From assembly GCA_016699795.1 (NCBI GenBank), contig CP065011.1, positions 546,474 to 610,473 on the forward strand: a stretch of DNA of 64,000 nucleotides, given 5' to 3'. The notes beneath the pieces were generated by a model. It was not told where the DNA came from, ran no database searches, and saw nothing but the letters and a program-made list of their open reading frames with translations. Below are positions 40,907 through 56,850 of this stretch, piece after piece. This DNA is from Candidatus Moraniibacteriota bacterium. GTDB taxonomy: Bacteria > Patescibacteriota > Minisyncoccia > Moranbacterales > GCA-2747515. Numbering within the stretch: position 1 is the first letter of the stretch; each line of letters opens with the position of its first letter. A program made the translations under genes and the position numbers.

Positions 40907-40950
40907 ATTCCGGGATGGCGCTCCGCCAGCTGGCGGAGGTAGCGCAGTTG
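40907..40950 (+). other. Degenerate copy of the tRNA-Asn 5' half carrying a 16-bp palindromic insertion (TCCGCCAGCTGGCGGA) in the D-loop
   Basis: tccgggatggcgc[tccgccagctggcgga]ggtagcgcag versus the tRNA's tccgggatggcgcagcggtagcgcagg. The remainder of the tRNA is absent. Confidence 0.5.
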
Positions 40951-40966
40951 GTTTGATACATATCTT

Positions 40967-41209
40967 CATGTATACAGTGTACGTGATTTACAACAAACAG
41001 TGTGATAAGATATATATCGGGCAAACAAAGAATCTTAAGAAAAGATTACAGTTTCATAATGAAAAAGTATTCAAAGGATATACTGCTTGATTTGAAGGAG
41101 TGTGGGTTGTAATCTATTCTGAAGAATATAAGAGTCGAAAAGAAGTATTAGTAAGAGAAAAACAACTCAAAAGTTATCAGGGTAGAAAGTTTATTAAAAA
41201 ATACTATAT
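40967..41209 (+). pseudogene. GIY-YIG nuclease family gene interrupted by an in-frame TGA
   Basis: MYTVYVIYNKQCDKIYIGQTKNLKKRLQFHNEKVFKGYTA*FEGVWVVIYSEEYKSREVLVREKQLKSYQGRKFIKKYY. Homologues carry Arg at the stop position (a one-step change from CGA/AGA to TGA). The reading frame runs into the tRNA. Confidence 0.55.
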
Positions 41210-41283
41210 TCCGGGATGGCGCAGCGGTAGCGCAGGTGACTGTTAATCACTTGGTCGTCGGTTCGAATCCGACTCCCGGAGCA
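41210..41283 (+). tRNA. tRNA-Asn (anticodon GTT)
   Basis: TCCGGGA acceptor. D-arm GCGCagcggtaGCGC. Anticodon stem-loop GGTGA-CTGTTAA-TCACT. T-arm GTCGGTTCGAATCCGAC. 3' acceptor TCCCGGA followed by G and CA. Confidence 0.85.
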
Positions 41284-42874
41284 GAACTGGAGAACTAGAG
41301 TATAAAAGCTCTAGTTTTTCTTTATCTTCGGGCAAATTCGTAGGTTCGAACTGCTTGAATATCGTCTTTATCTCAGAAGAGATTTTTTCAAGGCCGACTA
41401 ACTTATTATTGGCTTCAATATTGAGTTTTTTCTCAGAAAGTGAGAGGTTCGAACCAATTGCCTTGAATATCTCTTTTCGCTTTTCTTCGTCGCCATCCTT
41501 GAATTTTTCTAGTGCATCTTGGGCGAATGCAAGCCATTCCTTGGCTTCTTCAAGTTGGTCTATCCAGTTGGTTGAATTGCTCTCAGAAGCGTCCAAACTT
41601 GCTCTAAGGCGTGATTTTTCTTGGGATATGGTATCTTTCTTGGTAATGAACTCACCTTCGCTTAGCTCGCCATTTATTCGCATATCTAGGAGTCTATCTA
41701 GCTTTTTGTCACAAGCTTCGAATTCTTTTTTGTGATCCTCGAGTGCTTGTTTCTTTTCTTCGATTTCATCCCTATTTTCTTCCATCAGTTTTTTGATTGC
41801 CCATTCCAAGAAAGTTGGATGAATCTTTATTTTCTTGAGAATTTTTATAATTTCTTCTTCAAACTTCTTTTCTTCGACCACTTTTTGATCACATTTTGGA
41901 TCTAGTCGATGACTGCAATGATAGTAGATGTAATAATGGGTGTTTCCATTCTGACATTTTTTAATTTTGTGTTCAGCTACAACTGATGCTCCGCATATTC
42001 CGCATCGTGTTGCTCCAGTATATTTGAAACTATATTTTCTTGGCCTAGTCGTTCCTCGTCGGCCGAGAATCATTTGAGTCTTTTCAAATTCCGCTTGAGA
42101 GATCATTGGCTCATGCTTTCCTTTATGCCATTGTCCGCTATCAGATGGGAATTCATACCAGCCATAGTAGAATGGGTTATTCATCATTGCATACCATGAG
42201 CTGATGGAAACTTTTTGACCATGCTTGTTTGTAAATTTCCAATCGCTAGTTCCTTTTCTATATGCCTCCGGGGGAGTGAGCTTTCCTGAAGCTACCATCT
42301 TCAGCATTTTTTGAATCGTTTCAAATCTTTCAGGGTCTTTTTCAATTTCTTTTTCACCTTTTAGTTTGATGGGATTGTGTTTGTATCCGAGTGGCGACCC
42401 ATTAGGATACCAACCTCGCTCTGCTTTGTTTCGTAGCCCTCGCTTTGTGTCAGTGCTTAAGTCTCGAATGAATTGATTTGCCATTCCTTGCTCTACAGCC
42501 ATCACCAGAACATTATCTTCAGGGTAATAACTTCTTCCGAATGTAAAAATATGTTTTATCATCTTACCCTGTAGCATCCAACTTATCGTACCGCTATCTA
42601 CAGGATTTCTAGACAGGCGATTAAGTTTCCAACAAAGTATTCCATCAGCTTCACCCCGTTTTATTTTTTCAAACATTTCGTTAAAAACTATCCTCCCAGG
42701 CTCTTTGGCTGATTTGGATTCATGCATAATTTCAGATATATTCAACCCGTTTTCTTCTGCGAGTCTTTTTAACTCTTCTATTTGTGAGTCGATTGATGCC
42801 ATTTGTCGATCCTCACTTTCGGATGATTTTCTGGCATAGAGGATGTATTTATTTGCCTTCACTTCTTGGTTCAT
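41243..42874 (-). CDS. Large serine recombinase (integrase)
   Basis: N-terminal resolvase domain YILYARKSSESEDRQMASIDSQ (catalytic Ser). Recombinase domain. Zinc-ribbon CGICGASVVAEHKIKKCQNGNTHYYIYYHCSH. Coiled-coil. 543 aa. Confidence 0.85.
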   Translation of the reverse strand: MNQEVKANKYILYARKSSESEDRQMASIDSQIEELKRLAEENGLNISEIMHESKSAKEPGRIVFNEMFEKIKRGEADGILCWKLNRLSRNPVDSGTISWMLQGKMIKHIFTFGRSYYPEDNVLVMAVEQGMANQFIRDLSTDTKRGLRNKAERGWYPNGSPLGYKHNPIKLKGEKEIEKDPERFETIQKMLKMVASGKLTPPEAYRKGTSDWKFTNKHGQKVSISSWYAMMNNPFYYGWYEFPSDSGQWHKGKHEPMISQAEFEKTQMILGRRGTTRPRKYSFKYTGATRCGICGASVVAEHKIKKCQNGNTHYYIYYHCSHRLDPKCDQKVVEEKKFEEEIIKILKKIKIHPTFLEWAIKKLMEENRDEIEEKKQALEDHKKEFEACDKKLDRLLDMRINGELSEGEFITKKDTISQEKSRLRASLDASESNSTNWIDQLEEAKEWLAFAQDALEKFKDGDEEKRKEIFKAIGSNLSLSEKKLNIEANNKLVGLEKISSEIKTIFKQFEPTNLPEDKEKLELLYSSSPVLLRESDSNRRPSD

Positions 42875-42950
42875 TGTTTTTATATTAATTGATTAGTTTC
42901 TTCAACAAACATCATACTCTAAAACGTTACTAAAGCTAGTGGATAAAAAG

Positions 42951-43409
42951 CTACATTTCGTACCAGTTAACATCCTCATTAGCGTTGCTTTTGCTGTCCT
43001 TCTTTTCTTCTTTTTCCTCTTCATCGTCATCAAACATGTCCATTATGAGGCTTGGCTTTTTAATTTCAAGCTCTTTTTTCTCTTTGAATCGTTCAGGTTC
43101 CATCCTTTCAAGCCACCATGCTCCAGCCTTCCAATCTTTCAACATTCCTACTTTTATGCTCTTGTGAGCGAGCTTATGGGTTTCTAATTTAGCAGTCTCT
43201 AATCGTTCGCAAAACCCGCAAAACCTTTTTTTATGTCTTATGATTGTGTCCTCACTTATACCCACATAAACACATGCTTTTGATTGGCTCATGCCGTCAG
43301 ACAGAAGGTTTATAAGGATAGTTTCTTTATCTTTCGTAATTGCAAAAGGACGACCGTTTTTACTGCCTTTGATTTTTTTGTTTGATTTAACCTTTAATTG
43401 TTTCGTCAT
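42951..43409 (-). CDS. Helix-turn-helix DNA-binding protein (excisionase/regulator or terminase-small-like)
   Basis: HTH-like ILINLLSDGMSQSKACVYVGISEDTIIRH. Acidic C-terminus. Confidence 0.4.
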   Translation of the reverse strand: MTKQLKVKSNKKIKGSKNGRPFAITKDKETILINLLSDGMSQSKACVYVGISEDTIIRHKKRFCGFCERLETAKLETHKLAHKSIKVGMLKDWKAGAWWLERMEPERFKEKKELEIKKPSLIMDMFDDDEEEKEEKKDSKSNANEDVNWYEM

Positions 43410-44037
43410 GTTTTTGTTTGTTTCTTTTATGCCAGTTCAAGAGTGTTGAGATACAGAGAAGCCATTTGCGATTTAATTTTCGCATCATATTACTAGAATA
43501 TTGGACTTTTCTTAGGATCCTTTCTTTCTTCTTTTATGCCGTGTTCTGTCGGATGAGGTTTTGATCAGAATATTATTCACTTTGATTCTGATAGAAGTTT
43601 CTTATGTTGCCTCGGAGATTTGGCCTTGGGGTTTAATGTGATGTTCTGCAAGGAGACTTCGTTTTGCAAAACGCCCAATGCTTCTTTTGAGTCGCCCTTG
43701 TTGACTACGACTATGACCTAAGATTTGCGGTGTGGTTACCGGCACTATCCTGCCCAATATTTTTTCAATTATGTAGCGTAGGGTTTTATAAGGATCACAT
43801 TGGATCAGTTTAATCCCGACCTACGCATTTTTTTCGCTTGGTTTATATACTGCAGTTAACAAATCCAACAAAGATTGAGCACATTCAATAGCCTGTTCGT
43901 CGCTTATTTCTTCGCCGAACTCTCGTAGATGCATCTTTTTCAATTGTTGGATTTCTTCTTTTGATAACATAAAAACCATACATTATTTGTATGGTAATTA
44001 TAAAAGTTATTATTTTTACTGAGTTACGCTAAGTGGA

Positions 44038-44793
44038 CTACTTAATGTAACGCTTCAATCTGTGCTTGTTTGTTTTGAATTTTGAGATTGCTTTTTCAGG
44101 ATCCTTGTCTATTTTATCTTGATATTTTTCATCATCATCGTGTATTCTGTATAAAATATCGAGGTAATTTTCAGTTTCGTACTCATTTGTGTTTCCATCG
44201 AGGGATGTTCTTTTTGTTATCTTTGAAGCTTTAATTTGTTCCTCGATGTTTTTAAAAAATGTCTTTGAAATTCTTCGCCTAGGTGATTCACTATTATCTA
44301 ATCTACTTGAAATGATTGGCCAGCTATTTCTTAGATCGTTTAGAGTGGCATTTTTATCAAGACGCAGAACAACATCTCCCTTGTCGGATTCTATTTTGAT
44401 GCTAGTTGTTTCGGGTGGGCAATAATAACCACAGGCTATAAAATTCAACACTGGAATTTCCCATGTTTTTGACAGGTTGAATTTAGAGAAGAATCCATTG
44501 AACCATGTCATGAATTCAATATCCTCATCTTTTATAATTTTTTCACCAAGCGTTGCTCCATATTCATGTGCAAGTTTATGATTTTTAAAACTTTTGATCG
44601 AAAAAATATCACCAACCATTTCGTCGGTTAGTTTAAGTTTAATGTGCCATTCAAGTATTTCTTCAAAAAACCTTGTATTTTCATACATCTTTTCCATGAA
44701 AATCTGGTGGTTTTTGAAGAAATTTCTCTCAAAATAGCCTAATTTAGTATGAGCCCTTCCTGTTTTACTCATAATTTCATTGTAGTCTCTCAT
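44038..44793 (-). CDS. Hypothetical protein (251 aa), element cargo
   Basis: Intact ORF. No family recognised. Confidence 0.4.
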   Translation of the reverse strand: MRDYNEIMSKTGRAHTKLGYFERNFFKNHQIFMEKMYENTRFFEEILEWHIKLKLTDEMVGDIFSIKSFKNHKLAHEYGATLGEKIIKDEDIEFMTWFNGFFSKFNLSKTWEIPVLNFIACGYYCPPETTSIKIESDKGDVVLRLDKNATLNDLRNSWPIISSRLDNSESPRRRISKTFFKNIEEQIKASKITKRTSLDGNTNEYETENYLDILYRIHDDDEKYQDKIDKDPEKAISKFKTNKHRLKRYIK

Positions 44794-45024
44794 TCAAACC
44801 AAGTAAATGGTTGTATTTAAAGCAATTTGATGGTATTTTATATGTGATACCACAAGTTAATAAATACTGAGGCAAAACCCTGGGTTTTTTGTCCTATCAC
44901 GCCCTTTAGCGGGCGGCTCGATGCACATGATAGGACACCTCGGTGTTTCTTGACTTGTGGTATCCGTCGGGTCGTCCACTCAAGCGGAACCACTCGGCGA
45001 CTTAATTATTAAGTCGTTTTTATT

Positions 45025-45345
45025 ATGGAAAATCATCAAGAGGAGCCACAAGCAAAAAGCAATTCAAATCTTGAACAAAAATGGTGGTTCAGAATTGCGA
45101 AAGTGGCATATATTTTTTTGTACTTGTTTTTTGCAATATTAATTATCGCTTCAGGAGTGGATAATTTTTATAGTTATGACACTGTTATGAAATCGAATAG
45201 TTATACTCCAGGATTCGCATTTCTCAATATGCTAATAGTTATTGCTATTGGTTTTATCATAACTAAAATCACAAAGATAACATTTTTTTACATATTTCTT
45301 GCACAAAAGCCTAATTGGAAAAAAGAATTAACTAAGATATTTTAA
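45025..45345 (+). CDS. Hypothetical membrane protein (106 aa)
   Basis: Two TM helices. Confidence 0.3.
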   Translation: MENHQEEPQAKSNSNLEQKWWFRIAKVAYIFLYLFFAILIIASGVDNFYSYDTVMKSNSYTPGFAFLNMLIVIAIGFIITKITKITFFYIFLAQKPNWKKELTKIF

Positions 45346-45352
45346 TAGCCCA

Positions 45353-45796
45353 ATGAATAAAAATATTAAAATTATTACATCTATAACACTCATAGTCATC
45401 GTGCTCGGTGGTGTTTATATGTTTGGGGAACACAGAGGCAAGAGCAATTCGCAATCACTTGATAAGCAACAGCTTGAAAATCTGATGCGAAGTATTGATG
45501 AGCAATCATCTAAAATTGATAACTTGCAAGAAGAAAGTGTTGCGACAAAAAAGAGTAACTCTGTTATTGATACTCAGGCAATAATAAAGTCGTCTATGGA
45601 AAAGAGTGACCGTGAAGAACAGGCAAAATGCCAGCAAGAGTTAAGTGAATACAGTGCTTGCTTAAGTGAATATAATTCTAAGATGGCAGAATATAATTCA
45701 TGTCTGACTGAAAGTTCTGACCCAAGCTCTTGGCGTTATAAATCCTATTGCTCAAAACCTTCAAATTATTGTTTCAAGCCAGTTTGTGCTTATTAA
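45353..45796 (+). CDS. Hypothetical secreted protein with a Cys-rich C-terminus
   Basis: N-terminal TM/signal, coiled-coil, C-terminal CQQELSEYSACLSEYN...CSKPSNYCFKPVCAY. Confidence 0.35.
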   Translation: MNKNIKIITSITLIVIVLGGVYMFGEHRGKSNSQSLDKQQLENLMRSIDEQSSKIDNLQEESVATKKSNSVIDTQAIIKSSMEKSDREEQAKCQQELSEYSACLSEYNSKMAEYNSCLTESSDPSSWRYKSYCSKPSNYCFKPVCAY

Positions 45797-45856
45797 ATTG
45801 CCTACAGTAAGACTTGCTGGTTTACACAATTTACGGAAATATGCTATCCTATAAAC

Positions 45857-47845
45857 ATGAACGATGCATATTTTGGAAATAAAAAGATTTGTATAACGCA
45901 AAGACGTTATCTTGGCTCTAAAACTAAGCTACTATCATTTATAGATAGTATACTTGAAGGTGAGAATATAGAGTTTAATTCTTTCGCTGATATTTTTGCT
46001 GGAACTGGCACTGTTGCCAATCATTTTTATAATCGCTCTAAAATTATAGTGAATGATATTTTAGATTCAAATTCTCATGTCTACACAGCGTTTTTTGGTA
46101 AGGACATAATCAGGGAACAAAAACTGAAAGAACGACTAAAACATTATAATGACATTGAAATCAAAGAATATGATGAAAATTATTTTTCAAAAAACTTTTC
46201 AAACACTTATTTTGACGCAGAAAACGCTAAAAAAATAGGAATTATTAGGGATGATATTGAAAAATTATTTGAAGAAAAAATAATTACCAGTAGAGAAAAA
46301 TCTTATTTACTGACATCTTTGATTTACGCACTTGATAGAATTGCCAACACGGTTGGCCATTACGACGCATACAGAAAAATTGATATTCCAAATAAAAAAC
46401 TATTCTTGCTACCCCTTGATATAGCAAACTCTCGCTACTCTGCCAAAATCTACAAAGATGACGCTAATGAGTTGGTAAAAAAAATAAAAGCAGATGTTGT
46501 TTATATTGACCCGCCGTATAATTCTAGGCAGTATTCAGATTCTTATCACTTATTAGAAAATATCGCTACTTGGAAAAAGGAGACAGTTTTTGGTGTTGCC
46601 AAAAAAATTGACCGCTCTCACATCAAAAGCGAGTACAACATGAAATCTGCAGGCGTTGCCTTTGGCGATTTAATAGATAATATTAATGCGAAATATATCC
46701 TTGTTTCTTATAATGATATGGGGACTTCGGGTAATGCTCGTTCACAATCACGTATCAGTGACCATGAGATTTTGTCGTCGTTAAAACGGCGAGGTGAGGT
46801 AAAAGTCTTTGAAACCAACTTCAAACAATTCACTACTGGAAAATCGAGCAAGGATGATCTAAAAGAACGCATATTTTTGTGTAAGGTAGACATTGTCTCA
46901 AGAAACAATAAGGCGATAATTGCCTCAAAAAATAATCCTGTTCAAGCTGGCTTTGTAAAATCACCCCTTAACTACACTGGCGGAAAACATAAACTTTTAC
47001 CGCAAATAACAAAGTTATTTCCAGTTGGTATAAAAACTTTTTATGATGTATTTTCTGGCGGTGCGAATGTTGGAATTAACTCTACGGCTAAAAATATAAT
47101 CTGTATTGAAAAAAATCGTTATGTAGTAAGTCTGTTGAAGTTAATACAAAATGATAATTTTGAAGATTTGAATCAAAAAGTGATTGACATTATAGATAAA
47201 TTTGGTTTAAGCCAGAGCTATATAAAGGGCTACGACCATTATAATGTGGATAGTTCATCGGGTCTTGGTCAATACAATAAAGACGCTTTTCTAAATCTTC
47301 GCAGTGAGTTTAATAAAGAAAAAACAAGAATTGATTTATTGTTGGTGCTTGTTTTGTATTCTTTCAATAACCAAATTAGATTTAATTCAAATGGCGATTT
47401 TAATTTACCAGTTGGAAAACGGGATTATAATGGTAGTTCGAGGAGAAATGTTGCGTCTTTCAGCCAAGTATCAAACGAGAAAAAAATAGCATTTAAAAAT
47501 TGTGATTTTCGTGATGTTGAAAAAATGTCATTAATGAAAGATGATTTTGTGTATTTAGATCCACCATATTTGCTGGGTCTTGCTAGTTATAATGAAAAGG
47601 GAGGCTGGACAGAAAAAGATGAGAAAGACTTATATATACTCTTGACCAGACTCGATAAGAAAGGAATTAGATTTGCTTTATCAAATGTTTTAGAGCATAA
47701 AGGCAAAACTAATACAATTATGAAAAACTGGGCAAAAAAGCATAGTTACAAGATTCATAAACTAAACTATGACTACAAAAACTCAAATTATCACTCTACT
47801 GCAAAAAATAATAAAACCGTAGAGGTGCTTATTACAAATTACTGA
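45857..47845 (+). CDS. Fused tandem N6-adenine DNA methyltransferase (two D12-class/Dam-like domains), type IIS-style M subunit
   Basis: Domain 1: YLGSKTKLL, FAGTGTVA, VVYIDPPYNS. Domain 2: NYTGGKHKLL, FSGGANVG, FVYLDPPYLLG. Same architecture as M.AlwI/M.PleI/M.MlyI. Confidence 0.85.
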   Translation: MNDAYFGNKKICITQRRYLGSKTKLLSFIDSILEGENIEFNSFADIFAGTGTVANHFYNRSKIIVNDILDSNSHVYTAFFGKDIIREQKLKERLKHYNDIEIKEYDENYFSKNFSNTYFDAENAKKIGIIRDDIEKLFEEKIITSREKSYLLTSLIYALDRIANTVGHYDAYRKIDIPNKKLFLLPLDIANSRYSAKIYKDDANELVKKIKADVVYIDPPYNSRQYSDSYHLLENIATWKKETVFGVAKKIDRSHIKSEYNMKSAGVAFGDLIDNINAKYILVSYNDMGTSGNARSQSRISDHEILSSLKRRGEVKVFETNFKQFTTGKSSKDDLKERIFLCKVDIVSRNNKAIIASKNNPVQAGFVKSPLNYTGGKHKLLPQITKLFPVGIKTFYDVFSGGANVGINSTAKNIICIEKNRYVVSLLKLIQNDNFEDLNQKVIDIIDKFGLSQSYIKGYDHYNVDSSSGLGQYNKDAFLNLRSEFNKEKTRIDLLLVLVLYSFNNQIRFNSNGDFNLPVGKRDYNGSSRRNVASFSQVSNEKKIAFKNCDFRDVEKMSLMKDDFVYLDPPYLLGLASYNEKGGWTEKDEKDLYILLTRLDKKGIRFALSNVLEHKGKTNTIMKNWAKKHSYKIHKLNYDYKNSNYHSTAKNNKTVEVLITNY

Positions 47846-47848
47846 TTT

Positions 47849-49681
47849 TTGTGGCATACTGAAATTATGTTAAAAGCGTGGTCAATTACAACAACAGTTA
47901 GAAACCCGGAGCGTCTTCGTGATTTTTTGGTTGCTTTAAAGCCCCTTGAAAATAAAACTTGGGACAATGCTAATCAGGAAAATTATCAAAAACTTTTAAT
48001 CAAGAACCGTCTATATGGTTTTGGTAATGCACAATTTTATAATGGATTGACTGCAGATATTGTAAAGATGATAAATGATACCGACAGTGAAATTAATGAC
48101 AACACGGTAGATGAAATCATAAGATTGAAGAATTATACGGAATTTGCAATGCGTGGTCGTCAATCAATAAATCCTCTTACAAAATTTGGATTTGTAATTA
48201 TAGATAATGGCATAGTTAAAATAACAGAGCTTGGAAAGAAACTTATAGCTAGTGAAAAAGACGCTGGTGATGTGTTTCTGAAGTCGTTTATAAAATGGCA
48301 AATACCAAACCCAGCTAGTAACGATTTTCCAGATGATGGCGATTATGATGTCGTGCCTTTCGTTGCAACTCTTAAATTGATAAGCGAAGTTAATAGAATT
48401 GAAGCAGGGAAAGGAAATAATGCAGTTGGAATTAGTAAACGAGAGTTTTCATTATTTGTTCCATCATTGGTTAAGTATGCGGATATTGAAAAATATGCAG
48501 AGGAAATTGTTAAATTACGAACCCTGCAAAAAGGAAAAAAGAAGCAAGAACGAAAAGAGATTCGAGATAATTATCGTAAACAATTCGCAACCAACTTTTT
48601 GGGCACGAGTAAACAGACTGCGATCGATAAACTACTCCAAAATCTGAGGGATTATGGGGATAATGCAATTAGGTATTTCCGTCTAACAAAGTTTATCCGT
48701 ATTCGTGGCAATGGTTTTTATATTGATTTGGAGCCAAATCGTCGCATTGAGATCGAAGCTTTATTTGAAAGTGAATTTTATAAGCCAAAACATTTTGCAG
48801 ATAGAAATGAATATGTTTCCTATATGTCTGATGACAACTTGCCTGTATTGCCTTGGCAGACAAAAGATAAATTATCTAAAATTGCTAGCGATGTCTATAA
48901 GGATGTAATTGAATTGCAGAGCAATCTTGGTTTGGCGGTTGAAAGCAAGAAAGAGATATCGGCAATGTCTGAAAATGATCTAGTATTGTATGTTAATGAT
49001 TTGCGAGAAACTCGTAAGGAATTGCAAGAAAAGGACAATCATATCAAATCTCAACCAGTTTCATCAATCACTCAATATATTGAGCAACTAGAAGGAATTT
49101 TTGAATTTGAAAACCGTGCTTTAATGCTTGAATATCTCTCAACAATGGGACTTCACGCACTCAATGACGCAAAGGAAATTAAACCTAATTATCCAGTTGG
49201 AGATGATAACGAGCCGACATCAACTGCTCCTGGCGGTATGGCAGACATTGAATGTTTTTATGACAACTTTAATATGATCTGTGAAGTTACGATGTTGAAT
49301 GGCCGTGACCAATGGTTTAATGAAGGACAACCAGTTATGCGACATTTGCGTGATTTTGAAAACTCACACGACAATGCTTATTGTATTTTCATTGCACCAA
49401 AAATTCATACTGATAGTGCTGAAACTTTCCATATTGCTAACACAGTTGGATATAAGGGTAGCAAGCAAAAAATTGCACCGCTCACGATAAAACAATTTGT
49501 TGAATTATTAAAAACACTCAAAAAAATACGTGAGGCAAATAAAAATTTCACGCACAACAGTTTGAAAATTTTAATTAACGATATTGCTGATAGTGCCAAC
49601 AGTATTAGTAATTCTGATGATTGGGTTGCAAATACACAGAATATCGTCAATTCTTGGGCTATTAGTTTAGTAAGTGCGTAG
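47849..49681 (+). CDS. Putative type IIS restriction endonuclease (AlwI/PleI/MlyI/N.BstNBI-like), assigned by context and size
   Basis: 610-aa ORF starting 4 nt after the tandem methyltransferase. Size matches that REase family. No motif verified from memory. Confidence 0.45.
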   Translation: MWHTEIMLKAWSITTTVRNPERLRDFLVALKPLENKTWDNANQENYQKLLIKNRLYGFGNAQFYNGLTADIVKMINDTDSEINDNTVDEIIRLKNYTEFAMRGRQSINPLTKFGFVIIDNGIVKITELGKKLIASEKDAGDVFLKSFIKWQIPNPASNDFPDDGDYDVVPFVATLKLISEVNRIEAGKGNNAVGISKREFSLFVPSLVKYADIEKYAEEIVKLRTLQKGKKKQERKEIRDNYRKQFATNFLGTSKQTAIDKLLQNLRDYGDNAIRYFRLTKFIRIRGNGFYIDLEPNRRIEIEALFESEFYKPKHFADRNEYVSYMSDDNLPVLPWQTKDKLSKIASDVYKDVIELQSNLGLAVESKKEISAMSENDLVLYVNDLRETRKELQEKDNHIKSQPVSSITQYIEQLEGIFEFENRALMLEYLSTMGLHALNDAKEIKPNYPVGDDNEPTSTAPGGMADIECFYDNFNMICEVTMLNGRDQWFNEGQPVMRHLRDFENSHDNAYCIFIAPKIHTDSAETFHIANTVGYKGSKQKIAPLTIKQFVELLKTLKKIREANKNFTHNSLKILINDIADSANSISNSDDWVANTQNIVNSWAISLVSA

Positions 49682-49791
49682 CTCTTCCAAATTTTCCTAC
49701 AAGTAATGCTCCTTGCGGAAGCATTATCTATATGATTTATAGATAAAAAATTTTCGTTATTTTAGATTAATAACTCTCCTTAACTCTCTTT

Positions 49792-51360
49792 TTGTGCTAT
49801 TTTTTATATATGGTACAGAAAAGAGAAAATATCTTCGAAGTATATAAGCCTCTAAGGAACCACTTGAGAAAGTGTGAACTTGCTAATTCCTTGGAGGTAA
49901 TAAGAGCATATGCTCAAAATTTGCAATTTGGTAATAATAACTTTCCGCCTTATGTAGAAGTTTTAAATGAATTTTTGCAAAAGGATCATATTCAGAAAAC
50001 AAGATGGGTTTCCGAATGGAATCTGGAAATTCTAGCTAAAGAAGTAATAATAAATTCACCTATAAATGAGTGGAACGCAAAAACATTTAGACGGTGGTCG
50101 TATTTTATTGGTGCTGTTAATAAGCTTAAAGATATAGAAGGTAAAATTGCTACTGATCACATAGATGTATCAAATGTGCTTCGAGAATTAGAAAGAATGG
50201 CTCATGGTCAATTTGGCTGGCAAATCGGTCGCCCAAGTGCGGAGCTAATGGCAAGGTATTATAGAATTTATAGCACGTCCGAAATGGATACCTTAATAAG
50301 AGGTGCTATTGGATTAACAACAAAAGAGCTTTATTTTATGGGAGTTGCACTTACAGGATCATTTTTAACGCATTTTGCTTTGCATTATCCTCCTAAAATT
50401 GAAATTCCTGGATTAACTCAAGAAGCTATGGATAAATTTCTAAAGCATTTTTCATCCGATATTACTACTTTGAAAGAAAAATTAATATGCGAACAAAACA
50501 TAAATGAAAATTATTTTTACGCCTTTTCTTCCTTGAGAGGATATCCAATTATAAAGATGGATTTTGAAGGCAGATTTTGCTTAACTTGTCCCATTCCTAC
50601 GCTTTTATTCTGGAGAATCACTAGTGGATTATATTACGAAGTGGTCGATCAAAAAGGTTTTGACAATGCATTCGGAGCTTCATTTCAAAAGTATATTGGT
50701 GATTGTATTTCTGCTTCAATTACTAATGAGAATATAACGGCATTACCTGAGGAAAAAATTAGAGAAGGAAAAAATGAAAAAGATACGGTGGATTGGATAA
50801 TCGATGATGGTAAATCTGCTATTTTTATTGAGTGCAAGGCAAAGAGAATGACAATGCCTTCAAAGACTGAGTTGGTTATAAGTGATGCTTTCAGGAGGGA
50901 TGTCGAGAAAATGGCTGGTTTTGTTGTTCAGGTTTATAAAACCATAAAAGACTACCGAGCTGGAAAATATCTATCATATAGTTATGATGAAAAGAGGAAA
51001 GTATATCCGCTCGTGGTAACTCTCGAAGACTGGCACTTGTTCGGGGATAATGATTTATTGAAAGCCAAGATTGAAGAAAAATTAAAGGCGGAAAATATAT
51101 CACTGGATTGGTTGTCTAGTATGCCTTATACGATATGCTCGGCTCAAGAATTTGAAGAAATGATTCAGATTATTCAATTTAAGGGCATAGATGGAGTTGT
51201 TGGTAAAAAATCGAAAGATCCTGAAAAAGTTAAATGGGCAATGGCAAGTTTTCTGTCTTCTGAATATCCAGATGAGCATAAAAATACTAAAGCTTTATTT
51301 TTGAAAGACTTCAATTCTATTTTTCCAGATGAGATAGTCAAAAAAATAAAGATCAAATAA
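49792..51360 (+). CDS. Hypothetical protein with a PD-(D/E)xK-like nuclease motif (operon gene A)
   Basis: GASFQKYIGD...VDWIIDDGKSAIFIECKAKRMT (D..D...ExK spacing). Confidence 0.4.
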   Translation: MCYFLYMVQKRENIFEVYKPLRNHLRKCELANSLEVIRAYAQNLQFGNNNFPPYVEVLNEFLQKDHIQKTRWVSEWNLEILAKEVIINSPINEWNAKTFRRWSYFIGAVNKLKDIEGKIATDHIDVSNVLRELERMAHGQFGWQIGRPSAELMARYYRIYSTSEMDTLIRGAIGLTTKELYFMGVALTGSFLTHFALHYPPKIEIPGLTQEAMDKFLKHFSSDITTLKEKLICEQNINENYFYAFSSLRGYPIIKMDFEGRFCLTCPIPTLLFWRITSGLYYEVVDQKGFDNAFGASFQKYIGDCISASITNENITALPEEKIREGKNEKDTVDWIIDDGKSAIFIECKAKRMTMPSKTELVISDAFRRDVEKMAGFVVQVYKTIKDYRAGKYLSYSYDEKRKVYPLVVTLEDWHLFGDNDLLKAKIEEKLKAENISLDWLSSMPYTICSAQEFEEMIQIIQFKGIDGVVGKKSKDPEKVKWAMASFLSSEYPDEHKNTKALFLKDFNSIFPDEIVKKIKIK

Positions 51361-51364
51361 AATT

Positions 51365-52372
51365 ATGACATTGATTCTAGGTGTCCACATGGCCACAAAA
51401 ACATTTTTAATATCAGATACTAGACTTACTAAGCAAATGAGCGATGGCAGTTTTAAGTATGAAGATACTATCAATAAATCTTTTTCTTTGAACAAAAGAA
51501 TGAGTGGGATAGCGGCAGGACATGTTCAGCTTGCCGCTTTTGTGTTGAAGAAATTGAGGGAAAAAATTTCAGATGATTCTTTTATGATGGACTTAGAAAA
51601 AACAATCAATGAAAATGCAAACGATATCATTAAGGATTTTGTAAATACAACAATGATGACTAATCAGTTTACGGCAATGATATTCGCAGGATTTGATCGT
51701 GGTAGGGGGAAGAAAATAGGGGCAGCCATGCTTGGAAATGTAATGTCTGCAGAGTTAGCCTCTAGGGGAAATGGTTCGAGAATGAATCAGGCCGTTCATG
51801 CTAAAATTAAAGATGCATTAGCAGAAAATCTGATAAAAAGGGGTACGCTTGGAAAGGACTCCTTTATTGATGTAGATTTACCAAATTCAAGAATGCTTTC
51901 CCTGAAAATTGGAACTCGTCAATATGCCAATGGAAACTTCTATGAATTAAAAGAAATTGAATGCTATAACTATGTTTCTTTCTATCCTGATCAAGAATTC
52001 AAGAGCGTTATTTTGCCAAATACCTTGTTAACAAGTATTGAATTTCCTGAATTTGAGACTGTTTCCCCAAAAGAAGATGCTTTTGTTTATAGTGACTCAA
52101 TCAAGCTTATCAATTTTGTAAGGAAGGTTGTTAGGGAAAATAACTTTGTAAATGTTGGCGGCAATATCTTTCCTTTAATAGTTTTGCCTGAAGGGAGTAT
52201 ATTTCCTACGGGAGATATTGCAGTAATGGAAGATGGGAGACCCAAGATTATTGGGGGAATTCATTCTATCGATAATGTTTTATGCTATACATTGCCTGAT
52301 GGCACAAAAGGTCAATTTCAAACTATTGAGGGCTTGGGCGAAAATCCTTCAGTTACTCAATTACAAATATGA
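51365..52372 (+). CDS. Proteasome beta/HslV-like N-terminal nucleophile hydrolase homologue with a ~140-aa C-terminal extension (operon gene B)
   Basis: After Met removal, TLILGVHMATKTFLISDTRLT aligns with archaeal beta TTTVGITLKDAVIMATERRVT (Thr1, Gly5, Asp/Glu17, Arg19, Thr21). Also SGIAAGHVQLAAFVLKKL versus GMTIAGLVGDAQVLVRYM, and MIFAGFDRG versus LLVGGID. Confidence 0.45.
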   Translation: MTLILGVHMATKTFLISDTRLTKQMSDGSFKYEDTINKSFSLNKRMSGIAAGHVQLAAFVLKKLREKISDDSFMMDLEKTINENANDIIKDFVNTTMMTNQFTAMIFAGFDRGRGKKIGAAMLGNVMSAELASRGNGSRMNQAVHAKIKDALAENLIKRGTLGKDSFIDVDLPNSRMLSLKIGTRQYANGNFYELKEIECYNYVSFYPDQEFKSVILPNTLLTSIEFPEFETVSPKEDAFVYSDSIKLINFVRKVVRENNFVNVGGNIFPLIVLPEGSIFPTGDIAVMEDGRPKIIGGIHSIDNVLCYTLPDGTKGQFQTIEGLGENPSVTQLQI

Positions 52373-52929
52373 ACAATGACGATTTGAAAAAAATAAAGAA
52401 GTACATTGGAGTTGCTGAAAAAATAAGGAATTCAAACTTCATCAAAAATACAAAGCAGGTTAGTTTTAAGATGAATATCGAAATAGACAAGCCTGTTCGT
52501 TTTGAATCCACTGGATTTGATGAAGACCTGCTCAAATCAGCCTTGATGGATTTTAGAAAAATATACATGAAAAAAGACAGCACTAATTTTTTTCGTATAT
52601 ATAACTTGATATACAAAAATACCGATGATATTGCGATTAAGAACAATATAGAGAAGTGTAGAGAGATTTATGCGAAAATACTTAGTAGACCGACATCCAT
52701 AGGAATATACATAAACAAAGAGCTTCAAAATGTCGAAAAGATTATAGATGATTGGCTATACGGATACTATTTTCATGAAGATGATGAGAGAGAAGAAAAA
52801 ATGCAGGCCATAATGATAGGGCAACTATTTCATAGAGCATCATTCGTAACTTCCATTATAGATCTGATGAAAATTGCTATTGTTATGTCTAATAATGCAA
52901 AAAAGATTATATCGGAGTATGAGAGTTGA
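52369..52929 (+). CDS. Hypothetical protein (operon gene C, 186 aa)
   Basis: Start overlaps gene B stop (ATGA). No family recognised. Confidence 0.35.
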   Translation: MNNDDLKKIKKYIGVAEKIRNSNFIKNTKQVSFKMNIEIDKPVRFESTGFDEDLLKSALMDFRKIYMKKDSTNFFRIYNLIYKNTDDIAIKNNIEKCREIYAKILSRPTSIGIYINKELQNVEKIIDDWLYGYYFHEDDEREEKMQAIMIGQLFHRASFVTSIIDLMKIAIVMSNNAKKIISEYES

Positions 52930-52945
52930 CCTTTATTCGACTTGG

Positions 52946-53521
52946 TTAGCTTTTGTAAGGAGTGCTTTTGGGCAGTAGTAAATCATTTTTTTCAAAAAAA
53001 TCTTTCCATACATACATGCACCCTTGCACAACTCCTTTCAGGTCGTATTGATTACCTTTAAAGGTTACTAGATAATTACCCATAAATATCCCTTCCTCTT
53101 CTTTTAAATGTAGCGTTTCTTTTCTTTCTTGAGCCTCTTTAAGTTCTTTTGTAGATGCCTTAAAAATAGAACCCCCATAAGGCACTATTTTTGTGTCAGG
53201 ATCATTTGGCTTGTATTTTAATACTGCATGCTTTGATTTATTGCATAAATCACGACACATCTGGAATTGCACAGGAGAATCATGATTTTCGAAAGTTGGA
53301 AGTTTATCCTTTATGAGTTTATCAACCTTGCCATCTTCTTGAACCCACTCTCTGAGGTGATAGCAAGTTAGGAGGAAATCATAAACATCATCTAATCTCT
53401 CCTGAGAACTTTTTGAAAAAGTAGTACTTTCAAAATCGGCTATGATCTTGTCATGAACTCGCTCCATACGCCTGTATTGACTTTCAAGGCTTTCTGAATA
53501 ATCTTCTCTTGATTTTGTCAT
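52946..53521 (-). CDS. Hypothetical protein (191 aa), convergent on the operon
   Basis: Intact ORF. No family recognised. Confidence 0.35.
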   Translation of the reverse strand: MTKSREDYSESLESQYRRMERVHDKIIADFESTTFSKSSQERLDDVYDFLLTCYHLREWVQEDGKVDKLIKDKLPTFENHDSPVQFQMCRDLCNKSKHAVLKYKPNDPDTKIVPYGGSIFKASTKELKEAQERKETLHLKEEEGIFMGNYLVTFKGNQYDLKGVVQGCMYVWKDFFEKNDLLLPKSTPYKS

Positions 53522-53699
53522 AAGATTAGGGTTAATAATTATATTATCAATTATAGCATTTTATGCCTAATGGGTTCGTATCATTTTCAACTCGTGGAGC
53601 CATCTTTCGCCAAGGCTACAGAATGGCATGCCACAATGGTAAACTATTTATGTAACTATTGGTCTTAAACTATGCTATGCACACTACACCTATATCCTC

Positions 53700-53972
53700 T
53701 TGAGTTCAAAATCTCATATTTTTTATTTTGGCTCAACAAATAATCTCAAAGAAAGAATAATTTCGCACAATACAGGAAAAGTAAAATCAACAAAGCCACA
53801 TCTACCGTGGAAGATTGTTTGGTATGGAGTATTTTCTACAGAGAAAGAAGTAAGAGATTTTGAACTCTATCTCAAAACGGGTTTAGGTAAGGCCTTTGCG
53901 TATAAACGACTTATTTCTGTAGCTTTGGCGAAAGATTTTTTAGGGGGTCGTAATGGTATTACGAAACTTTAG
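53700..53972 (+). CDS. GIY-YIG nuclease family protein (small, intact)
   Basis: HIFYFGSTNNLKERIISHNTGKV...LPWKIVWYGVFSTEKEVRDFELYLKTGLGK. TTG start. Ends 9 nt before the distal direct repeat. Confidence 0.65.
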   Translation: MSSKSHIFYFGSTNNLKERIISHNTGKVKSTKPHLPWKIVWYGVFSTEKEVRDFELYLKTGLGKAFAYKRLISVALAKDFLGGRNGITKL

Positions 53973-54078
53973 TGAAGTATACCGACTCCCGGAGCACATG
54001 TAAAAAGAGCTTTTTAAGGCTATTTTATGCTATTATATTTATTTTGATTATTTAATAATCTTACTAAAATAAATTTCT

Positions 54079-54435
54079 ATGAATAATATTCCACAAATTG
54101 AAATGTGGGGAGGATGTGATGGTGACAAAAAAGGCATCGAAATAAAAGGCAATGGTTGTAATTTATATGGAGGTAGTGTTAATGTTAATATTCATGGCGT
54201 TAAAATGAGTGGCGTTGGGATAAAGAATGATGAAGGATCAACCGCAATTATTAGTGATATTGAAACAGATTCCCAAATAATCAATATGGGAGGAAGCTTT
54301 CTTAATCTTGAAAGAGCTAAAATTTTTATTAAGAGTGAAAAAATAAAATTACTGGATAATGTTTTTGTGCGAGCAATTAGCTTACTTTCTTCTGTAGCTG
54401 GTTTAGTTACTTTTATCTATTGGCTTTTTGCTTAG
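54079..54435 (+). CDS. Hypothetical tail-anchored protein (118 aa)
   Basis: Gly-rich soluble region, C-terminal TM helix LLSSVAGLVTFIYWLFA. Confidence 0.3.
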   Translation: MNNIPQIEMWGGCDGDKKGIEIKGNGCNLYGGSVNVNIHGVKMSGVGIKNDEGSTAIISDIETDSQIINMGGSFLNLERAKIFIKSEKIKLLDNVFVRAISLLSSVAGLVTFIYWLFA

Positions 54436-54579
54436 TTTTTGAAATTAGTTTTAACTTCCTCCAGACATCGGAGCCAATATTTTTTAAGGGCTTATTCAAA
54501 ACTATTTTTTATGCCTGAGTAGGTAGGATAGTAGAACTTTTTGTGATAAAATAAAATTATAAAAATAACATTCAAAAAA

Positions 54580-55317
54580 GTGAAACAAAATAAAAAAGGC
54601 AACATCGCTGTGATAACAATTATTATTGTGATTGTGGCAATTACGGCAGGAACTATCGGCTGGTTGTTTGCGAAAAGAACACAAACACCAATAATGCAAA
54701 ATCAAGCAAAAGAAGAAAATCTACCTCTTACACAACAGGATAAAAGTTTGAAATATGACATTCATTTTCCAGACCGATATTCGGGAACAGGATGCTATAA
54801 AAAAGAAGCTGATGGAACCGAGAATCAATATGAATTTAGGGAAGACTTTAATATCGATGCTCCGACAACGACAGTCAAATATTCGAATACTGAAAAAGGA
54901 ATTTCTTTTGATATTCCATTTAATCCAAACTGGGGGAATGAAGATTGTAAAGTAAAACCATATATTGAATTTACGCACTCTTCCGGCGACATTTCGATTG
55001 AATTTAGCAAGCCGACGGCGCCGGTGGGAAGGGAGTTCGGCCTAATAATATCAAAATATAGACCAGCGGAAGATATAATTACTGCTGAACAGAAAGATGT
55101 TTACCCAAATCCTAATCCTCGGAAAAAAACTATCGGAGATAAAAATATGATAGTTTATGATGACTACGGAATGATCCAAGTAACACATTACGAAGTTATT
55201 GGAAAAAAGTATAACTACATATTTAGTTATAGCAACTACGATTCTTCTCTCAATGATAGTCTCATAAAATCACTAGAGAGTATAATTGCTGACATGGAAA
55301 TAAAGAATGTTGAATAG
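54580..55317 (+). CDS. Hypothetical secreted/anchored protein (245 aa)
   Basis: N-terminal TM/signal (IAVITIIIVIVAITAGTIGWLFA). Confidence 0.35.
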   Translation: MKQNKKGNIAVITIIIVIVAITAGTIGWLFAKRTQTPIMQNQAKEENLPLTQQDKSLKYDIHFPDRYSGTGCYKKEADGTENQYEFREDFNIDAPTTTVKYSNTEKGISFDIPFNPNWGNEDCKVKPYIEFTHSSGDISIEFSKPTAPVGREFGLIISKYRPAEDIITAEQKDVYPNPNPRKKTIGDKNMIVYDDYGMIQVTHYEVIGKKYNYIFSYSNYDSSLNDSLIKSLESIIADMEIKNVE

Positions 55318-55554
55318 CACAGTATGGCAACTACGTGATCATCAAGCAGGTTCTAATGGCGTCCCAGTCCGCGGAGCTCTTAAAAAAAATCGCTTACCCA
55401 AGATTTTTTTTGGTATCAAAAAATGGGATGGGAACTGGAAATTAGAATTGGAGACGATAGAGATGCAAGAGATAATATAATTCTCACAAAAAACCACGTA
55501 CAATAAGAAAATTTTTTTAATAGACAGAGGATATCAATTTCTAACCTTAAAGAT

Positions 55555-56025
55555 GTGGACATTCAAATAAAAGTTGGAATTATAGTAATAAACGAGCGGG
55601 GGGACATTCTCCTTATTAAAGAAAAGTTGGAAAAGAACTCAATCTCTCTTTGGAATATTGTTAAAGGGTCCTACCAAGGGGGGGAGACCATTATGCAAGC
55701 AGCAATAAGAGAATGTATGGAGGAGGCTTCTGCAAACGTGAAGCTCCTATCTTCTTTGGGGACGTATGTTGCTGAAGAGCAAGGTAAGATTAGGGCGCAA
55801 TTTAATTTCTTGGCTCGAGCTAATTCTGATATCATTGCTCTGGCGTTGGAAAAAGATCAACAGTCGAGAGGTGAGGCGATTGAAGACACTTGTTGGTTCA
55901 CGAGGGAAAATGTGGGAAAGATTGGAAAAGAAGAGTTCGCTTCATTAAGGGCATACCAACTTATTCAAGACTGGTTGTCTGGAAAAGAGTTCCCTATCGA
56001 TTCTATTCAGCAGGTTTCCATGTAG
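55555..56025 (+). CDS. NUDIX hydrolase
   Basis: Nudix box GGETIMQAAIRECMEEASANV. Confidence 0.7.
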   Translation: MDIQIKVGIIVINERGDILLIKEKLEKNSISLWNIVKGSYQGGETIMQAAIRECMEEASANVKLLSSLGTYVAEEQGKIRAQFNFLARANSDIIALALEKDQQSRGEAIEDTCWFTRENVGKIGKEEFASLRAYQLIQDWLSGKEFPIDSIQQVSM

Positions 56026-56256
56026 AAAGGAAGAATAAGTAAAAGAAAAAGAGTCGTGCTAACTCTTTTTAATTATGTCTCCCGATACTAGGGATGACTT
56101 ATATTTAGTATGAGCGTTTCGTGAAATCTTTTTACATCTATTTTCAGTGACAGGAGTCGAAGTTTATGTCCTTTAGGGTAAATCCTGCCGCCGGAGCCAA
56201 CAAAAAACGAGGCTGTAAAAAGCCTTGTTTTTTGTTACCCGGGATAGGATTCGAAC

Positions 56257-56637
56257 ATGATTATCTACAAAGCACACGCGGTGAAAATTGACATGGCAAG
56301 ACAATGGCGTTACTGTAATTGCGAGCCTATAAACTCTTATGGAGGAGTTACCATGCGTACGTTCTTTTCTCGATATACAATTGGATTATTGGTCGGAACT
56401 ATTCTCGGGCTTGCTTATCCGGCGTCGGCATCGGTATGGAGTTTTTTCATCCTTCTGGGAGTTCTTGTGGTGAATGAACTCATGGGTAGGTGGGGCTTCG
56501 GGCAACACTGGAATGGATATCGACTCTCTTCGTATGCGCTTCATTTTGGGTTTTTGGCATGTATCTGGCTGGGTATCCAATTCGGAAGTGGAAATATCGG
56601 TACCTTCCTTGTTTTCGTCGGCGAAAAAATTAGTTAG
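56257..56637 (+). CDS. Small membrane protein (probable start near 56353), locally GC-richer
   Basis: MRTFFSRYTIGLLVGTILGLAY... has three TM helices. Followed by its own hairpin terminator (~56645-56690). Confidence 0.3.
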   Translation: MIIYKAHAVKIDMARQWRYCNCEPINSYGGVTMRTFFSRYTIGLLVGTILGLAYPASASVWSFFILLGVLVVNELMGRWGFGQHWNGYRLSSYALHFGFLACIWLGIQFGSGNIGTFLVFVGEKIS

Positions 56638-56814
56638 ACTTAAACCCCTACCTGCAGAAACCTGCTTCGGTGGGTTTTTGCTTTTTAAGGACATATAGTG
56701 AAAAGTGGGGTGTAATAAACTCTACATACCTTCAATCTGAAATAGTAGAACTTTGAGGTTTTATCCTCCTGTACAGAGGTTCTAATAGTGTTCAGCAGGC
56801 GGAGCCACAAATAA

Positions 56815-56850
56815 AACGACGTCCTTGAAGGACGTCTTTTTTATTTTTTC
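56815..56850 (+). terminator. Orphan rho-independent terminator (GACGTCCTT-ga-AGGACGTC plus T-tract)
   Basis: aaaacGACGTCCTTgaAGGACGTCttttttatttttt. No protein-coding ORF ends in front of it. Confidence 0.5.

Follow-up and report, generated by a model that had tools for sequence, protein, structure and literature searches.

Evidence for stacked insertions behind a tRNA-Asn gene of a Candidatus Moraniibacteriota genome: a serine recombinase island and a separate GIY-YIG mini-element

What has been inserted at the 3′ end of the tRNA-Asn gene in this stretch of a Candidatus Moraniibacteriota genome, and which sequences mark its ends? The window, i.e., the whole 64,000-nucleotide stretch that was analyzed, carries a tRNA-Asn with anticodon GTT on the plus strand (41210-41282; ARAGORN; Rfam tRNA, 69 bits), which is the presumed integration target, and a gene for a large serine recombinase (LSR) runs into it from the opposite strand. 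The host genes upstream of the tRNA are DnaG and RpoD, and the best matches place the host in Candidatus Moranbacteria/Moraniibacteriota, within the Candidate Phyla Radiation (CPR). The 15-mer CCGACTCCCGGAGCA, which covers the tRNA 3′ end, occurs exactly twice in the window, at 41269-41283 and 53982-53996. A first-pass annotation had reported this exact repeat 12.7 kb apart and had read the interval 41284-53996 as a single island bounded by it, unless the match was coincidental. It is no chance match, as two matches were found in 0 of 100 shuffles. A mobile island beside tRNA-Asn with the LSR as its integrase was also borne out, and tRNA targeting proved to be family-wide; the extent of the island and the meaning of the repeat have to be revised. 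Our results point, with high probability, to a stack of insertions behind the tRNA, the newest of which is an LSR-integrated island of 12,318 bp lying between the tRNA and an older GIY-YIG element.

The recombinase and its probable attachment sites

The recombinase (41243-42874, minus strand, 543 amino acids) was recognized by its Pfam domains, a PDB match, invariant residues and its homologs. Pfam detects Resolvase (1e-19), Recombinase and Zn_ribbon_recom domains. The N-terminal part has PDB matches to LSR catalytic domains, and residues 217-436 match the C-terminal domain of the A118 integrase (PDB, E = 5e-8), while all NCBIfam matches are far below the cut-off. Among 30 sequences, R15 and S17 of the catalytic YARKSS motif are invariant, and so are the zinc-ribbon cysteines C291, C294, C320 and C328. 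The protein therefore has the resolvase-type catalytic domain with nucleophilic serine and conserved arginine, as well as the C-terminal recombinase region with a four-cysteine zinc ribbon, that characterize LSRs. On sequence and att-site criteria, it is classed as a large serine integrase.

It is also evident that the open reading frame (ORF) reads into the tRNA. The final 13 codons are tRNA sequence in reverse complement, with the anticodon loop supplying the stop codon, and the last ~30 codons extend over a hairpin, the att core and the tRNA. Across the family, the consensus C-terminus '..SP.LLR..DSN..P.D*' is the tRNA read in reverse. The first-pass annotation was thus right that the tRNA encodes the C-terminus, but this is not a functional feature of the protein. 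Since a 98%-identical relative ends 34 codons earlier and relatives in the attP state have different tails (e.g., 'LLRRLDDVRT..'), the tail is best read as passive read-through.

The LSR island spans 41283-53600, and its two junctions share GGAGC only. At the left junction, the B arm of the putative attL (41260-41277, plus strand) consists of the T-arm sequence GGTTCGAATCC and the 3′ strand of the acceptor stem, and is followed by the core GGAGC (41278-41282, plus strand), located by alignment of the window with the related loci L001, L003 and L004. Island identity among these four ends at ..CTGCTCCG, beyond which are host-specific acceptor-stem and T-stem bases that pair with each host's own 5′ strands. 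Because the identity among related islands ends there, the crossover would lie in or next to GGAGC. Of the 8 bases just inside CGGAGCA, 5 are not the same in the window and in L001, although the island of L001 is 98% identical, which points to a host rather than an island origin of this segment. At the right junction, window positions 53569-53600 are identical at 30 of 33 sites to positions 173-205 of L004, whose recombinase is 83% identical to that of the window, and the identity starts exactly at GCTCC. Outside this core, there is a native terminator hairpin in L004 and the left repeat of the GIY-YIG element in the window, and the flanks are unrelated. The L004 arm ends at GGAGC, with neither a GIY-YIG gene nor a long repeat. 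Comparison of the two sequences thus places the putative attR core at 53596-53600 (plus strand), as the right end of the island. No tRNA precedes this core in the window; the sequence there is AATGGGTTCGTATCATTTTCAACTCGT, the candidate P arm (53569-53595, plus strand; similarity to L004). The core sequence, which the first-pass annotation had left to be determined, could therefore be narrowed to GGAGC; it is not the 15-bp repeat.

The spacing of the two arms is informative as well. In the tRNA, the distance from the start of GGTTCG to the core is 18 nt; in the island P arm it is 23 nt, i.e., 5 bp more. Fourteen further attR or attP candidates show a terminator hairpin and then GCTCC + 15 nt + GTT[C/A]GAACC on the recombinase-sense strand, whereas real tRNAs have GCTCC + 10 nt + ATTCGAACC. 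Rutherford et al. 2013 (PMC3783163) located the zinc-ribbon domain (ZD) motif at positions 16-24 in attP half-sites and found it shifted 5 bp toward the center in attB. With GGTTCGAAT placed at B-arm positions 19-11, the central dinucleotide falls within GGAG, which fits the shared core. The att spacing in the window, a short core with a ~5-bp ZD shift as judged by comparison among relatives, matches the published attB/attP signature of serine integrases. The T-loop could then be the ZD motif read by the zinc-ribbon domain, which would explain moves of sub-lineages between tRNA species.

In the mechanism that we propose, the recombinase would integrate a circular element through attP × attB recombination, with the 3′ end of tRNA-Asn as attB. 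Exchange would occur within or beside GGAGC, made up of the last three acceptor-stem bases, the discriminator base and one further base; because it lies there, the mature tRNA would stay host-encoded up to the discriminator base plus C. The island would replace only the encoded CCA and the terminator, and would supply a new hairpin and T-run. The zinc ribbon would read the T-loop sequence GGTTCGAA at distances of 18 nt (tRNA) and 23 nt (P arm) from the core, and this 5-bp offset between attB and attP would set directionality, as in serine integrases. Since the T-loop is universal, sub-lineages could have switched among Asn, His, Gln, Trp, Lys, Ser, Met and Ile targets. The mechanism makes definite predictions. 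The attP (~60 bp) should contain ..GGGTTCGTATCATTTTCAACTCGTGGAGCAGAACTGGAGAACTAGAG.. and, joined by excision, should read ..TTCAACTCGTGGAGCAGAACTGGAG.., and the restored attB with the GIY-YIG element should read ..CCGACTCCCGGAGCCATCTTTCGCC.. (joining 41282 to 53601). A tRNA free of the GIY-YIG element should read ..GGTTCGAATCCGACTCCCGGAGCACATGTAAAAAG.., and excision of a single 12.7-kb island should instead give ..GTGAAGTATACCGACTCCCGGAGCAGAACTGG.. (joining 41283 to 53997). At the right ends of islands in close relatives, the expected arm is ..GGGTTCG.ATCA.TTTCAACTCGT followed by the core GGAGC.

A GIY-YIG mini-element behind the tRNA

If the island ends at 53600, the second copy of the repeat needs another origin. 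A separate GIY-YIG mini-element at 53601-53981 (plus strand) was identified by alignment with 18 canonical units and by Pfam (GIY-YIG, 1.8e-12), and the 15-nt copy of the tRNA-Asn 3′ end that follows it (53982-53996, plus strand) is assigned by family statistics as the duplication flanking this element. The left inverted repeat ATCTTTCGCCAAGGCTACAGAA begins at 53602, and the right end reads ..GTGAAGTATA. The ORF at 53700-53972 is read from TTG; the canonical ATG at 53677 is followed by a +2 frameshift, so the recognizable GIY-YIG catalytic domain lacks the first GIY strand. Such a frameshifted copy fits an old insertion. The gene that had been listed among the island cargo is thus present, but it appears to belong to an older, separate and frameshifted element.

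Metagenomes were searched with the 90-amino-acid GIY-YIG protein, which yielded 152 relatives, of which 80 loci were kept (L091-L170). At 57 of these loci, the GIY-YIG gene is preceded on the same strand by a complete tRNA (Gln, Ser, Asn, Met or Tyr) whose end lies no more than 260 nt away; the usual gap is 49-100 nt, and 54 of the 57 fall within 49-157 nt. Downstream of the ORF, a conserved '..GCGAAGGATA' is followed by a 12-17-nt exact copy of the 3′ end of the upstream tRNA in 45 of the 57 loci. The copy starts at the first C of the T-stem 3′ strand, and the right-end signature before it can also be written '..GAAGTATA' or '..GAAGGATA'. Imperfect inverted repeats are formed by ATCCTTCGCYAARGCTACGGAA, which directly follows the tRNA, and the stretch that precedes the copy. 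Among the 39 cleanest units, the median element length is 348 bp (range 329-482), and 33 have a gap of 0-1 nt between the end of the upstream repeat copy and the left inverted repeat.

The window follows this layout closely. Before its second repeat copy stands 'tagtgaagtata', the junction also seen in canonical units, and the window aligns with these from 'GGAGCC ATCTTTCGCCAAGGCTACAGAATGGCATGCC' (53596 onward) through the GIY-YIG gene, starting exactly where their tRNA 3′ end lies. The start of the alignment reads 'GGAGCC ATCTTTCGCCAAGGCTAC..', with no tRNA upstream of GGAGC. The difference is that 12.3 kb separates the tRNA from the left end of the element in the window, whereas nothing separates them in canonical units. 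Judged by these family statistics, the 15-bp repeat is the end signature of the GIY-YIG element, not of the LSR island, and the claim that it is the att core of the island can no longer be upheld. Because the GIY-YIG signature explains the repeat, the island is taken to end at 53600 and not at 53996, with a length of 12,318 bp instead of 12.7 kb. In the order that we favor, a ~380-bp GIY-YIG element with inverted-repeat ends would have inserted flush behind the tRNA and duplicated its last ~15 nt, and the LSR island would later have inserted between the two.

Two readings were given up along the way. An early model, in which the crossover was at the inner edge of the 15-bp repeat and the island carried the last 15 nt of the tRNA, was dropped given the GIY-YIG units and the L004 arm. 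Upstream repeats of at least 10 bp in relatives were first taken as attR; those in L019 and L082 were re-read as tRNA-end fragments ~170-190 nt beyond attR-like sites. Between the attR-like site and the copy (3772-3960 in L019, 1196-1390 in L082) there is no ORF, which suggests small non-autonomous relatives of the GIY-YIG element.

A recombinase family at tRNA ends and other explanations

We then considered how general the association with tRNA genes is. The recombinase has more than 2,690 homologs at E ≤ 1e-10, and a one-genome-per-species scan returned at least 569 relatives, from which 80 loci, mostly from CPR, were taken. Where enough flanking sequence was available, the gene abuts a tRNA 3′ end in 53 of 66 loci. 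An intact convergent tRNA overlaps the 3′ end of the recombinase gene in 40 of the 80 loci (22 Asn, 7 His, 6 Gln, and one each of Trp, Lys, Ser, Met and Ile), and an intron-containing tRNA with an Asn-like 3′ half was found at 13. A further 14 contigs run out at the gene end or no more than ~90 nt from it, in several cases within tRNA-like sequence; seven loci have a different arm of attP type, and six are truncated or unclear. The four closest relatives (83-98% identity) are all located at a tRNA-Asn 3′ end in different gene neighborhoods. In two of these four, ARAGORN missed the tRNA because a group I intron interrupts it. By these counts, the recombinase family as a whole targets tRNAs. The family has a single match among 2.9 million viral contigs in IMG/VR, and no phage structural, packaging or lysis gene was detected in the island by Pfam, NCBIfam or PADLOC; for these two reasons, the elements are regarded as islands rather than prophages. 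Group I introns in the tRNA-Asn anticodon loop (Rfam, 61-80 bits) are in themselves widespread, being seen in many CPR genomes and at 13 of the 80 LSR loci; examples are L003 (11626-11831) and L004 (8525-8770), and standard tRNA scans miss them.

Could the locus be explained in other ways? The simplest is the model of the first-pass annotation, a single 12.7-kb island (41284-53996) with the repeat as att core and the GIY-YIG gene as cargo, in which the last 15 nt of the tRNA are replaced by island sequence. The repeat is indeed exact and non-random and starts at a structural boundary of the tRNA, and serine recombinase systems with 15-18-bp identities are known, SCCmec and SPbeta among them. 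However, the same repeat layout with a GIY-YIG gene occurs in dozens of recombinase-free loci at tRNA-GIY gaps of 49-100 bp, the window aligns with these units from 53600 onward, L004 shares the arm ending at GGAGC, and the divergence of L001 inside CGGAGCA marks that segment as host-derived. We regard this model as largely refuted and thus improbable. The insertion could also be a fixed, vertically inherited block beside tRNA-Asn, domesticated or dead and not recently mobile. That neither an empty site nor an attP was found for the exact element, that its GC content is indistinguishable from the flanks, and that downstream scars show such islands decaying in place would agree with it. Set against these are the 83-98%-identical recombinases at differing tRNA-Asn genes with entirely different flanks and partly different cargo, the DnaG-RpoD-tRNA-Asn locus, which is occupied by another island in L088 and by none in L086, the many contigs that break at the junction, and the recombinase ORF, which is intact with its catalytic residues. 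The element may still be active. A fixed block is accordingly very doubtful.

The least likely account is that the DNA arrived by some other route, through a lost tyrosine integrase or GIY-YIG homing, with the recombinase as a passenger, e.g., a resolvase or invertase. Transfer RNA 3′ ends are the classical target of tyrosine integrases, and two kinds of GIY-YIG element are found at this same tRNA; but Pfam and NCBIfam detect no tyrosine recombinase domain in any island ORF, the recombinase gene's own 3′ end forms the tRNA junction in 53 of the 66 informative loci, the short GGAGC core and the 5-bp offset are serine integrase features, and the recombinase has a full integrase-type C-terminal domain. 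The LSR-integrated island between the tRNA and an older GIY-YIG element therefore remains our preferred explanation, and several observations weigh against it. Its GC content (0.31-0.40) does not stand out from that of the flanks (0.32-0.41), so the atypical base composition of many genomic islands is missing, a feature that is not required for membership. In the window clade, the P arm is supported by one relative only (L004), and its fit to the L026 site of a distant clade is moderate (~18 of 27 matches by eye). The P′ half-site has no clear mirror copy of the T-loop motif. In viral contigs, DNA searches found neither the right end of the island nor its left arm nor the predicted attP; metagenome contigs gave no match to the empty-site junction, and neither a same-species empty site nor a circular junction was found. 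Exact-protein look-ups of RpoD, of a 118-amino-acid ORF and of the two best RpoD matches returned no record; these matches are P0121 (100% identical over the full length) and P0122 (100% identical over 77% of the query). A loose P-arm regular expression is estimated to match ~2 times per 64 kb by chance. Finally, the 21- and 16-nt tRNA-end copies ~170-190 nt past the attR-like sites in L019 and L082 have no GIY-YIG gene in between, so other small elements must be assumed there.

How do these elements compare with known ones? Phage LSRs (A118/LI, Bxb1, phiC31 and SPbeta) have the same domain order, i.e., a resolvase N-terminal domain, a recombinase domain and a zinc ribbon with coiled coil, and they share the short core, the motif 5 bp farther out in attP and the integrase gene next to attP. 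In the window, by contrast, the target is a tRNA 3′ end instead of a protein-coding gene, attP lies inside the 3′ end of the integrase ORF, the island is non-viral (no phage genes, one IMG/VR match), and the sequence similarity of the recombinase to these enzymes is distant (PDB E ~5e-8; NCBIfam far below cut-off). Integration of serine recombinases into tRNA genes is rare according to Ghinet et al. 2011 (PMC3218068), as the first-pass annotation had also remarked; the cases cited there are phage phiRSM1 (tRNA-Ser) and eight AICEs (integrative and conjugative elements of actinomycetes) of Mycobacterium (tRNA-Leu). The likeness of these to the window is serine-recombinase integration into tRNA genes, at the 3′ end of tRNA-Ser in phiRSM1. 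The AICEs are conjugative and replicative, the phiRSM1 recombinase is small and resolvase-like, and both come from a different phylum than the window host; the present family, set apart from them by description only, has thousands of members and uses several tRNA species. Tyrosine-integrase islands of the Islander/TIGER type resemble the window in the tRNA 3′ end, defense cargo, successive insertions and a tRNA that stays functional. They use a different enzyme class and a long identity block within the gene, whereas in the window the crossover would fall right at the tRNA end, with a core of 5 bp, and the island would replace only the terminator and the encoded CCA.

For the nested element, the nearest precedents are homing endonucleases in CPR rRNA insertions and T4 SegB, a free-standing GIY-YIG homing endonuclease in a tRNA gene cluster (PMC2330249). 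A small GIY-YIG gene beside a tRNA and an intact target gene are common to SegB and the nested element. The latter differs in its ~0.35-kb length with imperfect terminal inverted repeats, its 12-17-nt duplication of the tRNA 3′ end, and its occurrence at five tRNA species in CPR metagenomes, where it is known from sequence alone. The searched literature contains no element with inverted-repeat ends and a ~15-nt tRNA-end duplication. Likewise, it contains no description of the recombinase family, its size, tRNA range or att logic, although absence there is no proof of novelty. The principle of serine-recombinase tRNA targeting is already reported; the size of the family, the range of tRNAs and the att logic are apparently new. 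We suggest, tentatively and with somewhat less than even confidence, that an undescribed family of CPR tRNA-end serine integrases and a new class of ~0.35-kb GIY-YIG tRNA elements are both involved.

If so, CPR would harbor a very large integrase family that uses the T-loop as zinc-ribbon motif and the acceptor end as crossover, with naturally retargetable members (Asn, His, Gln, Trp, Lys, Ser, Met and Ile) and, written over the 3′ coding region of the integrase gene itself, an attP and a substitute tRNA terminator. The GIY-YIG element would be a nuclease-driven, tRNA-specific unit resembling a miniature transposon, with a ~15-nt target duplication, and a mirror type would duplicate the tRNA 5′ part. 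Serine integrases are leading tools for the insertion of large DNA, and their use is limited by natural target-site choice. Thousands of tRNA-end integrases would offer many ready-made landing sites and a natural retargeting experiment, because attB and attP can be read directly from genomes. For CPR biology, the results show tRNA 3′ ends to be hot spots of defense-island accumulation, where three selfish kinds (LSR islands, GIY-YIG mini-elements and group I introns) compete for one ~75-bp gene. The main interest thus lies in the family-wide rule of tRNA-end targeting and in the nested mini-element, and less in the single island. A caution of method follows as well: an exact direct repeat of a tRNA end beside an integrase need not be its att site.

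History of the locus, cargo and minor features

The downstream region 53997-56805 (plus strand) probably holds remnants of two earlier LSR islands, as judged by regular expression, P-arm similarity and tblastn. Two P-arm-like scars with a GGAGC core were found at 55350-55377 and 56779-56805, each followed by a hairpin. Because the regular expression alone matches by chance, the assignment of both scars depends on extra similarity: the first shares its first 14 nt with the L026 site and its flank resembles the L015 site, while the second matches, by tblastn, the attP-state tail of P0019 (E = 7e-8). The remnants would include a NUDIX gene that lies in this region. A strong intrinsic terminator at 56818-56836 (plus strand; terminator scan) is probably the original tRNA-Asn terminator, where host DNA starts. 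We infer the following order as the most economical: two older LSR islands would have integrated and decayed, the GIY-YIG element would have inserted, and the present island would have integrated at the regenerated tRNA end.

The DnaG-RpoD-tRNA-Asn locus varies among relatives: L088 has another LSR island there, and L086 and L087 lack an LSR, so presence is variable at a conserved chromosomal site. In L088, whose RpoD is 87% identical, the island at 11528-21452 has an LSR of 27% identity and a cargo of type I restriction-modification (RM) and Abi genes, and this LSR shares the FEP motif and the tRNA read-through tail with that of the window. In L086 and L087, the tRNA is directly followed by a terminator and an attR-like scar lies 7.3 kb downstream. 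L086 has an ISL3 transposase (11859-12974) right after the terminator of the unoccupied tRNA-Asn, and its scar is at 18931-18957; the locus may be a decayed island rather than a true empty site.

The cargo of the present island is, from its domains, defense-related, with an AlwI-type RM system and a GapS1-like operon. Pfam and PADLOC recover the helix-turn-helix (HTH) gene and the type IIS RM system that the first-pass annotation had listed, and its several unknown genes are present as ORFs. The RM system consists of a fused double D12-class N6-adenine methyltransferase (45857-47845, plus strand; Pfam 1e-60 in two stretches, PADLOC MTase_II 2e-170) and an adjacent AlwI-family type IIS or nicking endonuclease (47849-49681, plus strand; Pfam RE_AlwI 8e-90, PADLOC REase_II 3e-127). 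It resembles the AlwI and N.BstNBI systems in combining an RE_AlwI protein with a fused double D12 methyltransferase, and differs in being carried as island cargo. PADLOC recognizes nothing else in the island. A three-gene operon (49792-52929, plus strand; NCBIfam and Pfam) encodes proteins of 522, 335 and 186 amino acids. The 522-amino-acid protein matches the NCBIfam antiphage family GapS1 at 1.6e-26, below the family cut-off, and the 335-amino-acid protein has a proteasome-beta/Ntn-like N-terminus (Pfam Proteasome, 4e-7). The operon is probably defense cargo and may represent an undescribed defense system. Other defense-type cargo in relatives includes an RM system, an M78 peptidase, type I RM with Abi, and an AAA ATPase with an S8 peptidase.

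Next to the recombinase, an HTH protein (42951-43409, minus strand; weak Pfam HTH matches) is encoded in DNA that is conserved in L001, L003 and L051. It may be a regulator or directionality factor; Pfam and NCBIfam recognize no directionality factor among the island proteins. The remaining genes are a 251-amino-acid ORF without Pfam, PADLOC or NCBIfam match (44038-44793, minus strand), two small ORFs of 106 and 147 amino acids in a region with homologs in related islands (45025-45796, plus strand), and an ORF of 191 amino acids, the last of the island (52946-53521, minus strand).

Directly after the tRNA, the island brings a hairpin with a T-run (41289-41320, plus strand; terminator scan, 13 pairs), which forms a terminator-like P′ arm and is overprinted on the recombinase codons DKEKLELLYSS. 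Such hairpins are found family-wide, with a mean stem of 9.6 bp versus 6.0 in shuffles and a mean minimum free energy z of −3.0; the stems vary between loci yet remain complementary. RNAalifold on the ungapped alignment gave no consensus structure because stem registers differ between loci, and per-sequence hairpin statistics were used in its place. The hairpin probably replaces the tRNA terminator that was displaced by integration.

Two further motifs within the recombinase gene are conserved at the nucleotide level: a T-loop-like motif GTTCGAACC coding for 'FEP' ~62 nt from the core (41343-41351) and GGTTCGAACC coding for 'GSNL' (41446-41455). The sequence GG[T/C]TCGAACCTC ('GSNL') is present in 52 of 69 relatives with protein identities of 41-98%, and in these AT-rich genomes the codons are TCG for serine in 64 of 69 and AAC for asparagine in 65 of 69. 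The 12-mer GGTTCGAACCTC is likewise kept in the gene, its second occurrence coding for 'RFEP/RLEP' ~62 nt from the core. In other words, two places in the 3′ part of the gene keep GGTTCGAACC(TC) even at synonymous sites, at the same positions in L006-L085. The internal motif equals the putative ZD motif of the att arms, yet it lies too far from the core for a standard half-site. It may serve accessory binding or autoregulation, or may be a relic.

A GIY-YIG gene of a second type, also frameshifted (40953-41207, plus strand), lies directly upstream of the tRNA-Asn and is preceded by a decayed copy of the tRNA-Asn 5′ part (40909-40945, plus strand), the mirror image of the 3′-end element; both were identified by sequence. 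The 5′-part copy in the window contains an 18-nt palindrome insert, whereas the copy in the corresponding region of L053 (11560-12100) is exact over 36 nt. We ruled out a decayed group I intron at 40909-41207, as there is no Rfam intron signal and the 36-nt 5′ copy in L053 has a complete tRNA downstream. In L008 (6785-7024) and L084 (2215-2442), homologs of the second type lie within the group I intron region of tRNA-Asn or adjoin it.

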